Shown: one piece after another, positions 44,765 through 46,500 of the stretch
How the letters are laid out: every line of letters begins with the position of its first letter
Numbering within the stretch: the first letter of the stretch is position 1
DNA from: Escherichia phage vB_EcoM_P54
Direction: 5' to 3' (one strand)
Length of the DNA: 64,000 nucleotides
Sequence record: PV390658.1
Program-made: the position numbers and the translations under genes
Notes under the pieces: model-generated
Seen by the model: the letters and a program-made list of their open reading frames with translations, nothing else
The model's database searches: none
What the model was told of the DNA's origin: nothing

Positions 44765-44792
44765 TTGACATAGAAAATTTGGTGAGTATACT
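44765..44792 (+). promoter_or_regulatory. sigma70-like promoter
   Basis: TTGACA (44765-44770), 16-nt spacer, TATACT (44787-44792). Confidence 0.55.
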
Positions 44793-44798
44793 GAGCAG

Positions 44799-44977
44799 CA
44801 TAAACCAACGGGTACTCACCAGCATCACTTAAGAGTCTTCTAAGAAGGTTTTTAAGTGATGCTCGGTCAGGTATGGTGCGGTGGTGTAAGGTGGTGTCAG
44901 GTGTAGTATGGTGCGGTGATGTGAGGTATGGGTAGTTAGTCTCAGCTACATTAAAATGAGACTTACCTTTTTAAAAG
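44799..44977 (+). ncRNA. candidate small structured RNA (about 175 nt)
   Basis: Downstream of the promoter at 44765; 12-bp stem AGCATCACTTAA/TTAAGTGATGCT (44821-44863); GGT-phased tract; hairpin AGTCTCA-GCTACATTAAAA-TGAGACT (44938-44963) followed by a T-rich run; no ORF. Confidence 0.35.
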
Positions 44978-45157
44978 GTCTTTAAACAGGGTATTTTAAT
45001 AAGGTAGTGTCAGGTTAGGTTAGGTGCGTTTTGGTAGGGTAGGGTAAGGTTCGGTAAGGTATGGGTGGATGGTAGTAGCCACGTTAAAAATCTACCAAGT
45101 TTCTAAAGAGTCTTCTGTTGAGGGTTCTTTACAAACAACTTAACAATCAACTAAAGT
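44978..45157 (+). repeat. second GGT-phased tract plus hairpin upstream of gene 45173
   Basis: GGTTA GGTTA GGTGC ... GGTAG GGTAG GGTAA GGTTC GGTAA pentamer phasing (about 45015-45075); hairpin GGTAG-loop-CTACC; motif GAGTCTTCT. Confidence 0.5.
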
Positions 45158-45172
45158 GTGGAGCTAAATGCT

Positions 45173-45760
45173 ATGAAACTGTTAAATATCAAAATCACTG
45201 GTACTCGTCCTTTCCTGAGCCACGCTGATACACTGTCAGACCCATTAAACCCTCTGACAAAATATCACAAGTCTCTGTCCAGTAAACGTAAAAAGACCGA
45301 CGAAGACTATGCGCTCTTAGCAGAAAGCCAACTGGTAACTTCTTGTTACTACGATGAGCAGCTAGGTTTTGTTATGAACGGTGAGATGATTGAGGCTTGC
45401 ATCAAGTCTGGTGCGAAACTCAACAAACTTGGTAAGGTGATTGACCGAGCCATTATGCTGACAGATGTAGTCTTCCCAATGACTATCAAGAACTGTCCAG
45501 CAAACCCACAAGAACTTGCTAAGAATCCAGACTTTATCTATGCTAAGTCTGTTAAGATTGGCACAGCACGAGTTATGAGCTACCGTCCAATCTTCCGTGA
45601 CTGGTCTGTAGAGTTTGGTTTGATGTTCGATGAAGAGCAAATCACCAAAGAAGAACTCTTGATGGTTCTGGAAAATGCTGGTAACCTTTGTGGTGTAGGT
45701 GATTGGCGTCCACGCTTTGGTCGTTTTTCTGTAGAAGTTATTTCAGAAGGTAACGTTTAA
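45173..45760 (+). CDS. hypothetical protein (about 195 aa)
   Basis: ORF-track start 45158 is GTG; ATG at 45173 after GGAG. Confidence 0.55.
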
Positions 45761-45762
45761 TT

Positions 45763-46203
45763 ATGAATACAAAAGCATTAGCAGCAAAGTTTAGTTACGG
45801 TGACACTGTATCACATTCTGAGATGGATACCTTCTTAGGTATTGCGAAGCCAACTTATCAAGGTGACATTGTTAAGTACGAAGATGAAATGAAGGCTTAT
45901 GCACTTACACGTCTAAACCGACTTGAGAAGTTTATTGAGAAGCTCCTTAAAGAAGAGAAGATTTATCTGGTTGCTTCAATGGGTGTTGGTTATCGTGTGG
46001 TTGAGCCTAAGCATCAAGCAACTATTGCAAAACGCAAAATGTCTGGTAAGATTGGTCGTGCTTTAAAGCAAGCCACTCAAGCAATTGAGAATGTGAACAC
46101 TATGGCACTTAGCCATCAAGAACGTTCACGACTGATTGAACAGCAAAACCATTTAGCTGCTATGAAAGCTAACATTAACAAGCAACGTAGAAAACCTTTC
46201 TAA
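45763..46203 (+). CDS. hypothetical protein (146 aa)
   Basis: ORF from the track, followed by a terminator. Confidence 0.55.
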   Translation: MNTKALAAKFSYGDTVSHSEMDTFLGIAKPTYQGDIVKYEDEMKAYALTRLNRLEKFIEKLLKEEKIYLVASMGVGYRVVEPKHQATIAKRKMSGKIGRALKQATQAIENVNTMALSHQERSRLIEQQNHLAAMKANINKQRRKPF

Positions 46204-46212
46204 GTTGACTAG

Positions 46213-46238
46213 GTAGCCTCTTCGGAGGCTCCTTTTTA
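46213..46238 (+). terminator. rho-independent terminator (plus strand)
   Basis: AGCCTC-TTCG-GAGGCT hairpin followed by TTTTT. Confidence 0.65.
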
Positions 46239-46500
46239 AAAGGTCTTTAAGAGGGTCTTTTAATAAGGCTCGGCAATGTTCGGCATGGTCTGGTATAGTC
46301 CGGTGCTGTTCGGCGTGGTAAGGTGAGGTATGGGTAGTTAATCGGAGCTACATTAAAATTCGATTACATCACTTAAGAGTCTTCTAAGAGGATTTTTAAG
46401 TGTTGTGAGGCGAGGTACGGTCGGGTATGGCTATGTCTGGTATGGTTTGGTATGGAAGGATGGCAGCAGCCTTATAAAAAATCTGCCAAATAAGCTATAA
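46239..46500 (+). repeat. paralogous copy of the GGT-phased structured module
   Basis: Shares with 44799-45157 the box TTAAAAGGTCTTTAA.AGGGT.TTTTAATAAGG, GGT-phased tracts, GGTATGGGTAGTTA...GCTACATTAAAA and CACTTAAGAGTCTTCTAAGA; hairpin stem changed compensatorily (AATCGGA/TTCGATT versus AGTCTCA/TGAGACT). Confidence 0.55.

Follow-up and report, generated by a model that had tools for sequence, protein, structure and literature searches.

VIPR (Viral Interference Programmable Repeat) is a CRISPR-like, phage-encoded, RNA-guided DNA-silencing system that was first described in 2026 preprints (bioRxiv 10.64898/2026.04.26.720920, 10.64898/2026.04.26.720927). In phage SUSP1 the system comprises a RAMP homologue, Vipr, and an accessory gene, vap, with long intergenic regions on both sides, and small RNA sequencing of SUSP1-infected cells detected four vrRNAs of ~100 nt, one upstream and three downstream, which co-purify with Vipr in pull-down experiments (bioRxiv 10.64898/2026.04.26.720920). 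Each vrRNA has 9 to 16 Y-NN-GG repeats and, 3' of them, an invariable tail that contains a pseudoknot; its NN dinucleotides read double-stranded DNA and pass over one base at every repeat (bioRxiv 10.64898/2026.04.26.720920). Repression of GFP and of phage lambda was PAM-free and reprogrammable, the SUSP1 phenotype was lost when GGY was kept and the order of the NN was shuffled, and the natural targets of SUSP1 are on a satellite that probably parasitises SUSP1 (bioRxiv 10.64898/2026.04.26.720920). Cryo-EM revealed one Vipr protomer per repeat, a 3' pseudoknot that caps the filament, GGY held by residues H17, D177, R138, W178, E71, M72, R179, and C173, and the skipped target base in a pocket contacted by K33 (bioRxiv 10.64898/2026.04.26.720927). 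The published mechanism stands on two preprints from one laboratory.

We analyzed a 64-kb stretch of DNA (64,000 nucleotides; the window) from Escherichia phage vB_EcoM_P54 (PV390658.1). Positions 44765-46538 almost certainly constitute a type II VIPR locus of a Felixounavirus, and we are just as confident that this locus is the ortholog of the experimentally studied locus of Escherichia phage SUSP1. Because it is orthologous to the published SUSP1 system, the P54 locus is already known in kind and is not new. Its sequence suggests that it is a genuine, functional-looking type II VIPR locus. The anatomy of the locus, its orthology, the RAMP fold, the covariation of the pseudoknot, and the target matches under the one-base-skip rule were established directly for P54. 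Expression, RNP formation, DNA binding, and silencing would be expected in P54 by analogy with the SUSP1 orthologue in the preprints.

The two loci have the same order of ligase, vrRNA(s), vipr, vap1, and vrRNA array, and they share the Y-NN-GG repeat, the tail pseudoknot types, the boxes, and the closing hairpin. They also share a target family, an E. coli satellite with tape-measure and baseplate genes. They differ in that P54, which is known from sequence only, has its own NN sequences, hence its own target sites. The layout of the guides differs as well, with one upstream and three downstream in SUSP1 versus two and two in P54.

Genes and guide tracts of the P54 locus

P54 is a Felix O1-like myovirus (Felixounavirus), and 258 Ounavirinae records match positions 44700-46600, most of them at ~90-95% identity. 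The local order is a DNA ligase gene (43619-44758), a 414-nt intergenic region, genes for proteins of 195 and 146 amino acids, a 376-nt intergenic region, and a gene for a 127-amino-acid protein. The neighbors of the locus are the ligase, an HTH regulator, and proteins without assigned function. An earlier reading made from the sequence alone (the sequence-only reading) had described two segments bracketing genes at 45173-45760 and 45763-46203, and these segments are indeed essentially ORF-free.

The first bracketed gene, vipr (45173..45760, + strand), encodes a 195-amino-acid Cas7-like RAMP that is 98% identical to SUSP1 Vipr. It has the RRM core, glycine-rich loop, and thumb of a minimal RAMP, and alignment with SUSP1 Vipr showed that H17, D177, R138, W178, E71, M72, R179, C173, and K33 are retained at the same positions. 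Binding of the repeat GGY is predicted from the SUSP1 orthologue. The 195-amino-acid protein has at least 520 homologues, all without a Pfam domain or a name. The second gene, vap1 (45763..46203, + strand), begins 3 nt past vipr, as in a two-gene operon, and encodes a 146-amino-acid accessory protein that is 99% identical to SUSP1 Vap1; a Pfam search of Vap1 gave zero matches. The identification of the bracketed genes as a RAMP effector and its accessory protein indicates an RNA-guided DNA-binding system in place of a small RNA that acts alone, and the RNAs and these two genes are linked in function.

Each intergenic region contains two tracts in which GGT (sometimes TGT, AGT, or GGC) recurs every 5 nt for 11 to 14 units. 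Only four places in the window, each of them on the + strand, had a 5-nt periodic xGT score of 9 to 12 of 12; the background maximum was 5. Each of the four modules consists of a pentamer tract of 11 to 14 Y-NN-GG units, with variable NN, followed by a 32- to 33-nt H-type pseudoknot. All four are on the + strand. vrRNA1 (44862..44963) has a 14-unit tract (44862-44931; NN = TC CA AT GC GG AA GG CA GT AT GC GA GA AT) and a type a tail (44932-44963); its 5' end was placed on the basis of the ~100-nt size of the SUSP1 vrRNAs and is approximate to that extent. vrRNA2 (45000..45097) has 13 units (45000-45064; NN = AA AG CA TA TA GC TT AG AG AA TC AA AT) and a type c tail (45065-45097). Downstream of vap1, vrRNA3 (46264..46365) combines 14 units (46264-46333; NN = AA TC AA TC AT CT AT CC GC TC GT AA GA AT) with a type b tail (46334-46365), and vrRNA4 (46401..46488) combines 11 units (46401-46455; NN = GT GA GA AC CG AT TA CT AT TT AT) with a type d tail (46456-46488).

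A box of one of two related kinds, A or C, precedes every tract. The first region reads box C, tract, tail a, box A, tract, tail c, and the second reads box A, tract, tail b, box C, tract, tail d. The two regions, with their boxes and tails in permuted order, are not colinear copies. The claim of the sequence-only reading that the segments hold structured noncoding RNA genes on the + strand was upheld, but its description of them as two duplicated modules was not, because there are four different guides in permuted order. The conserved boxes that it noted in both segments are present and correspond to repeat families D2 to D5. The dominant (Y-NN-GG)n pentamer tract was absent from that reading.

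Among 558 units from related phages, the Y position was a pyrimidine in 92%, the first G position was G in 72%, and the second in 89%. The non-G residues found at the first G position in about a quarter of these units count against the VIPR reading. N1 and N2 were near uniform, and all 16 dinucleotides were in use. The NN of the tracts are wholly different between phages with identical flanks, whereas boxes and tails are nearly invariant. The hypervariable NN code is the informative part of the vrRNAs, and the conserved structure is only a 3' handle.

Transcription signals, boxes, and the tail pseudoknot

A sigma-70-type promoter (TTGACA-16-TATACT; 44765..44792, + strand) that agrees with the consensus at 11 of 12 positions precedes the first two guides, as the sequence-only reading had proposed. 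This promoter and the leader that follows it are kept in related phages, Felix O1 included, and the promoter is predicted to be active. A promoter-like site with 9 of 12 consensus positions (TTTACA-18-TAAAGT; 45128..45157, + strand) is in front of vipr, and a promoter is annotated at the same place in the ASO1B record. No sigma-70 promoter was evident for vrRNA2 to vrRNA4, whose boxes are without one.

The terminator scan and folding identified an intrinsic terminator, AGCCTCTTCGGAGGCT plus a T-run, after vap1 (46215..46237, + strand). This strong terminator sits immediately 5' of vrRNA3, and its T-run is the start of the second box A. Its position there and the lack of an evident promoter for vrRNA2 to vrRNA4 weigh against the VIPR reading. 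The locus is closed by an AT-rich 13-bp hairpin with a T-run (repeat I3; 46488..46538, + strand; -17.8 kcal/mol, z -4.2), which is kept after tail d in all related loci and whose loop holds the TTGACA of the promoter of the next gene.

Box C forms a hairpin of 20 to 22 bp in the 5' flank of vrRNA1 (44821..44863, + strand; -25.9 kcal/mol, z -6.1), with a 3' arm that extends into the first repeat unit. A second copy is in the 5' flank of vrRNA4 (46366..46406, + strand; -21.1 kcal/mol, z -5.8). Box A lies between vrRNA1 and vrRNA2 (repeat D4; 44966..44999, + strand), where it forms a weak hairpin (z -0.45) and where CCTTTTT follows the tail a hairpin, and its second copy, in the 5' flank of vrRNA3 (46231..46263, + strand), forms a 12-bp AU-rich hairpin (z -1.2). 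The sequences of both boxes are conserved, as variants, across phages, and comparison of related phages revealed no compensatory changes in these variants. The 3' arm of box C varies without compensation, and it does so where the first guide unit lies; a selected outer stem is therefore unsupported. Boxes A and C between the guides may be signals that set the 5' ends of the vrRNAs. The 20- to 22-bp stem of box C could be an RNase III substrate, and a role for box C in processing is a guess. The discovery preprint does not mention tRNA, RNase, orphan, or leader in its main text, and it mentions a hairpin there once, in the legend of Fig. S9 on the tail (bioRxiv 10.64898/2026.04.26.720920). Some features of the P54 locus are outside the coverage of that main text.

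The sequence-only reading had singled out a hairpin with compensatory changes, AGTCTCA/TGAGACT in the 44944-44963 region and AATCGGA/TTCGATT in the 46346-46365 region, on a common loop, GCTACATTAAAA. Both stems and the loop were confirmed, and the hairpin proved to be stem 2 (S2) of the tail pseudoknot. Stem 1 (S1) is 4 bp long (GTAG/CTAC, GTGG/CCAC, or AAGG/CCTT) and is interleaved with S2, which has 6 to 7 bp. The loops of 1 to 2, 1 to 3, and 7 to 9 nt, the last of them A-rich, have the geometry of an H-type pseudoknot.

Seventeen distinct tails from the window, related phages, and E. coli satellites were aligned. Paired cells made up 88.7% of this alignment, compared with 23 to 43% when the partners were slid, demonstrating that the compensatory changes are real and that pairing is supported across related phages. 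S1 pairing was 100%, with three of its four pairs changing on both sides, and six of eight S2 pairs did so. Covariation was found in 9 of the 12 tail pairs, with a score that none of 500 shuffles reached, but the tails fall into only four to six types, so the independent covariation events are few. Single substitutions within a type were mostly in loops; two, in type c, touch a terminal S2 position. The proposed selection on RNA structure is upheld, with the qualification that it covers only the 3' handle of a larger object and that the hairpin is half of a pseudoknot. The covariance-model search suggested with the sequence-only reading yielded zero matches to Rfam 15 models at the gathering score in the window and seven related loci. 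A tRNA scan of the 64-kb window found none.

One explanation for these features is a stand-alone structured small RNA of ~175 nt, a riboregulator that is duplicated around the cassette and whose function resides in the hairpin and boxes. The promoter, the conserved boxes, the covarying stem, and the CCTTTTT after tail a are all present, as such an RNA would require. However, the conserved structure is only the 32- to 33-nt 3' cap, and a riboregulator leaves the periodic hypervariable tract, which makes up the greater part of each RNA, unaccounted for. The tracts encode 2+1-register matches to satellite genes (see below), and the RAMP encoded by a bracketed gene shares 98% identity with a protein for which binding to RNAs of this kind was demonstrated. 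Furthermore, Vipr- and NN-dependent repression of matching DNA was reported for SUSP1 (bioRxiv 10.64898/2026.04.26.720920). The 175-nt transcript had been predicted from a hairpin and T-run terminator after the first copy, a site at which the terminator scan made no call, and the mature SUSP1 RNAs are ~100 nt; 175 nt could be the length of a primary transcript. A stand-alone riboregulator is, in our estimation, very unlikely.

The compensatory changes also bear on the possibility that the repeats act as DNA, whether as origin iterons, as a partition or packaging site, or as primase or R-loop initiation sites. The changes keep RNA pairing, including G-U, which is meaningless in duplex DNA. The tracts are always co-oriented with the flanking genes, their NN vary freely whereas iterons do not, and other phages carry several unrelated copies per genome. 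The orthologous SUSP1 RNAs were detected and co-purify with Vipr (bioRxiv 10.64898/2026.04.26.720920). Against these observations can be set the location of the region among replication genes (the ligase, with a polymerase nearby in Felix O1), the G-rich non-template strand downstream of a strong promoter, and GenBank annotations that treat the sequences as direct DNA repeats, namely 'DR_4' in wV8 and 'possible binding site of StbAB' in KhF3. We consider a DNA-level function extremely improbable. These GenBank features in Felix O1-like phages are guide-RNA genes. The genome papers of Felix O1 and UAB_Phi87 mention direct repeats, not these ones.

Guide matches in an E. coli satellite

Comparison of the locus with 5,426 complete E. 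coli genomes by BLAST matched the vrRNA2 tract and type c tail in 152 chromosomes. The intact matches sit in an ~11-kb island with genes for a large serine recombinase, baseplate and tape-measure proteins, an HNH protein, a Dam-like methylase, and a small recombinase. Relatives of the island were found in 544 of the 5,426 genomes; NZ_LR882052 and NZ_CP070026 are examples of chromosomes with the satellite.

The guides, treated as lists of NN, were scored against the DNA of 12 satellite loci (221 kb) with 0, 1, 2, or 3 bases skipped between dinucleotides. Three of the four guides matched the satellite at 82 to 96% of NN positions. vrRNA1 matched 27 of 28 positions in the tape-measure gene (TCACAGATGGCTGGTAAGGGTCAGGTTATGGCTGAAGAG, encoding the peptide SQMAGKGQVMAEEL), and vrRNA2 matched 24 of 26 in the same gene, ~175 codons upstream of the vrRNA1 site. 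vrRNA3 matched 23 of 28, including a perfect central 22 of 22, on the antisense strand of a gene for a 107-amino-acid hypothetical satellite protein. The matches of vrRNA1 to vrRNA3 appeared only when one base was skipped; the rules that skip 0, 2, or 3 bases gave background scores of 14 to 21 and were dropped. The skipped base was the codon wobble (third) position in all three targets, the position on which it usually falls in VIPR. When the order of the units was permuted 200 times, the observed scores were never reached (permuted maxima, 21 to 22). The P54 target matches reproduce the published one-base-skip rule independently.

vrRNA4 gave only a background score in the 12 satellite loci, and its nine-unit core had zero exact matches in IMG/VR, which weighs against the VIPR reading. 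No self-target was found in the 64-kb window, where the best self scores, 16 to 21 of 22 to 28, were background.

These matches bear on whether the RNAs might instead be sponges or scaffolds without guide function, acting through TRAP-like protein titration, two-tier G-quadruplexes, or sequestration of the 30S subunit or of the tRNA CCA end. With a conserved triplet every 5 nt and 2-nt spacers that are free, the tracts formally resemble TRAP sites, and many units, such as GAGGT and AAGGT, are Shine-Dalgarno-like. However, the NN with one skip reproduce satellite coding sequence at 82 to 96%, which permuted guides never do, and the partner protein has the fold of a RAMP and does not resemble TRAP. 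In addition, cryo-EM puts GGY inside Vipr and NN on DNA (bioRxiv 10.64898/2026.04.26.720927), and the SUSP1 phenotype is lost on NN shuffling with GGY kept (bioRxiv 10.64898/2026.04.26.720920). We give next to no credence to a sponge or scaffold. Several specific readings were rejected: a TRAP-like ring-protein site, a T4 gene 32-type operator (pseudoknot plus single-stranded tract), two-tier G-quadruplexes, a Shine-Dalgarno/tRNA-CCA sponge, T7-type primase sites, and an R-loop origin. They were rejected because none accounts for the reproduction of satellite coding sequence by the NN or for the RAMP partner.

Under the VIPR reading, the four vrRNA genes, a pair on either side of vipr-vap1, would give + strand transcripts that mature into RNAs of ~85 to 100 nt, each with 11 to 14 Y-NN-GG pentamers capped by the 3' pseudoknot. 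One protomer of Vipr, a minimal Cas7-like RAMP, would bind each repeat, hiding GGY and exposing NN. The NN of the filament would then pair with double-stranded DNA, reading two bases and skipping one, and the resulting gapped R-loop or triplex would block transcription, an effect that Vap1 would be expected to enhance. The P54 guides would be aimed at the ~11-kb satellite integrated in E. coli chromosomes. Because the guides are directed at satellite genes, the locus may serve inter-virus competition. For P54, we infer the exact RNA ends, the promoters of vrRNA2 to vrRNA4, and this biological pay-off.

Related loci and comparison with known systems

In ten related Ounavirinae loci the tracts were confined to these intergenic regions, with one in Felix O1 and four to five elsewhere. 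The SUSP1 sequence itself showed the published one-plus-three arrangement. The 86-kb genome of Felix O1 has neither vipr nor vap and retains the promoter, the leader, box C, and one vrRNA-like module. vipr is present in only 117 of the ~230 to 260 Ounavirinae records that share the upstream region. A guide-only state is probably also found in the roughly half of Ounavirinae records without vipr, because the matches of those listed are confined to the promoter, leader, and box C. Of the 12 satellite loci, 8 have a single vrRNA, with a tail that resembles type c, and genes for Vipr and Vap are absent from all 12. Guide-only vrRNAs may be loaded onto Vipr from a co-infecting phage (guide piracy), or they may be decoys. 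A joint reading, in which boxes A and C are maturation signals and guide-only vrRNAs are loaded by trans-supplied Vipr or act as decoys, is tentative, and we think it somewhat doubtful.

A scan of IMG/VR for six consecutive GGTNN units returned, among the matches listed, microsatellites and many unrelated viral contigs with variable-spacer tracts. The viral-contig tracts among these listed matches were intergenic and on the same strand as the flanking genes. Clustering of the first downstream ORFs, again among the matches listed, recovered homologues of the 195-amino-acid protein in six unrelated contigs and of the 146-amino-acid protein in four. A Rhodococcus genome and a Xanthomonadaceae contig encode distant homologues of Vipr, downstream of which lie first a partner gene and then arrays of three to five modules with the unit NNGGC. 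The linkage seen from both directions indicates that the unit is NN-GG-Y and that the array of RNAs belongs with the two proteins in a single system. The tails of the Rhodococcus array carry a T-arm-like motif, GGTTCGATTCC, and ARAGORN calls two of these tails aberrant tRNAs.

P54 is a further natural example of VIPR in Felixounavirus, with a two-plus-two layout unlike that of the model phage SUSP1 and with inferred targets in an E. coli satellite for three of its four guides.

TRAP binds (G/U)AG repeats of the Bacillus trp leader as an 11-mer beta-sandwich ring, with spacers that are free of information, and brings about attenuation in cis. TRAP resembles VIPR in that a protein oligomer reads a triplet repeated on single-stranded RNA, with spacers of 2 to 3 nt in TRAP. 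In VIPR, by contrast, the code resides in the spacers, a RAMP filament takes the place of the ring, and foreign DNA is targeted.

Class 1 CRISPR-Cas systems, in which Cas7, Csm3, or Cmr4 forms a filament on crRNA, share only the RAMP fold with VIPR. No CRISPR-like array was found among the tandem and direct repeats of the window, and no cas1, cas2, or other cas genes were found in the window. The period in class 1 systems is 6 nt, of which 5 are read, whereas that of VIPR is 5 nt, of which 3 are hidden and 2 are read, with the target read as 2+1. The CRISPR guide is an acquired spacer, in contrast to the VIPR guide, which is a phage-encoded genomic tandem repeat. VIPR represents a new class of RNA-guided DNA recognition, with a non-contiguous code in which two bases are read and one is skipped, carried by an ~20-kDa RAMP that has been proposed to predate CRISPR.

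Boxes between the guides and a repeat-rich region

The vrRNAs of the window are separated by two conserved boxes, designated A and C. On the plus strand, box C (44821-44863) lies in the 5' flank of vrRNA1 and box A (44966-44999) lies between vrRNA1 and vrRNA2, with second copies of box A (46231-46263) and box C (46366-46406) in the 5' flanks of vrRNA3 and vrRNA4, respectively. Box C is predicted to form a hairpin of 20 to 22 bp (z about -6). Its 3' arm extends into the first repeat unit, and its loop carries a 30-nt insertion in some phages. The hairpin of box A is AU-rich and weaker than that of box C, and a direct repeat lies within the box (GGTCTTTAA / GGGTCTTTTAA). 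Boxes A and C have the core GTCTT(C)TAAGAGGGT in common. No compensatory changes in boxes A and C were seen among the variants across related phages. When the main text of the preprint reporting the discovery of VIPR was searched for terms, "hairpin" was found only in the legend of Fig. S9, which concerns the tail. Candidate roles for the boxes are a processing signal, a promoter, or a terminator.

Elsewhere in the window, 1.6 kb without ORFs (1048-2694) is dense in short tandem repeats of 10 to 12 nt. The motif CTTAACAR has 31 matches in the window, for which 9 would be expected, and 11 of them fall within 1155-2210. The motif is also present in the vipr promoter region (45139-45146). The region at 1048-2694 may bind a regulator or represent a genome end.

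Guides without effector genes

The type phage, Felix O1, has neither vipr nor vap (no match by tblastn against its whole genome). The promoter, the leader, box C, and one vrRNA-like module are kept (L005 2464-2745; loci L146 and L147, AF320576 57755-57812, minus strand). This module, with 11 units and tail d, is therefore an orphan guide. Of the Ounavirinae records that have the upstream region in common, about half lack vipr, which was found in 117 records versus 230 to 258 with the shared region.

The element targeted by the guides, about 11 kb long, is a satellite-like island in E. coli chromosomes, exemplified by L137 3852-14878 among the E. coli loci L134 to L145. Its genes include a large serine recombinase, baseplate, tape measure, HNH, a Dam-like methylase, and a small recombinase. 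The island occupies several integration sites (wrbA, tonB/yciI, yecD/yecN, and dinB), and relatives were present in 544 of 5,426 complete E. coli genomes. Of the 12 satellite loci fetched, eight have a single vrRNA, whose tail is type c-like, and none encodes Vipr or Vap. Any guide function of the satellite vrRNA would thus need Vipr from the helper phage.

Existing annotations

Parts of vrRNA genes already carry other labels, which are older than VIPR and need updating: direct repeat 'DR_4' in the wV8 record (L001 1667-1724 and 3060-3117), 'direct repeat sequence4 possible binding site of StbAB' in the KhF3 record (L002 1652-1662), and, for tail a in the ASO1B record, a rho-independent terminator. 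Within GU169904.1 ("Staphylococcus phage SA1", 147 kb), a record ascribed to a phage of Staphylococcus aureus, lies Felixounavirus sequence (90814-92263) with a vipr 100% identical to that of the window. The record is probably a mixture of two phages.

Pentamer modules in other genomes

Among the IMG/VR matches listed, some large viral contigs have at least 10 variable-spacer pentamer tracts each, dispersed upstream of unrelated genes. Every tract closes with ...GGTAAGGTGAGGG, after which come a hairpin and a T-run. Multi-tract contigs are represented by loci L044 to L049 (IMG/VR contig 3300029288_001872, 189 kb), L043, and L130. In L130, TTCTCTGGCGAGAAATTTTTATGC separates five tandem modules.

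Five tandem (NNGGC)n modules also lie 3' of a distant vipr-vap pair in Rhodococcus globerulus (GCA_037145555, L131 5137-5651). Each ends in ATGGG and a minihelix, which has the tRNA T-arm-like motif GGCGGTTCGATTCCGCC and an acceptor-like stem. ARAGORN called two of the modules aberrant tRNAs. Together, the T-arm-like motif, the acceptor-like stem, and the ARAGORN calls suggest that the RNAs of this clade have tRNA-like tails or are processed by tRNA enzymes.
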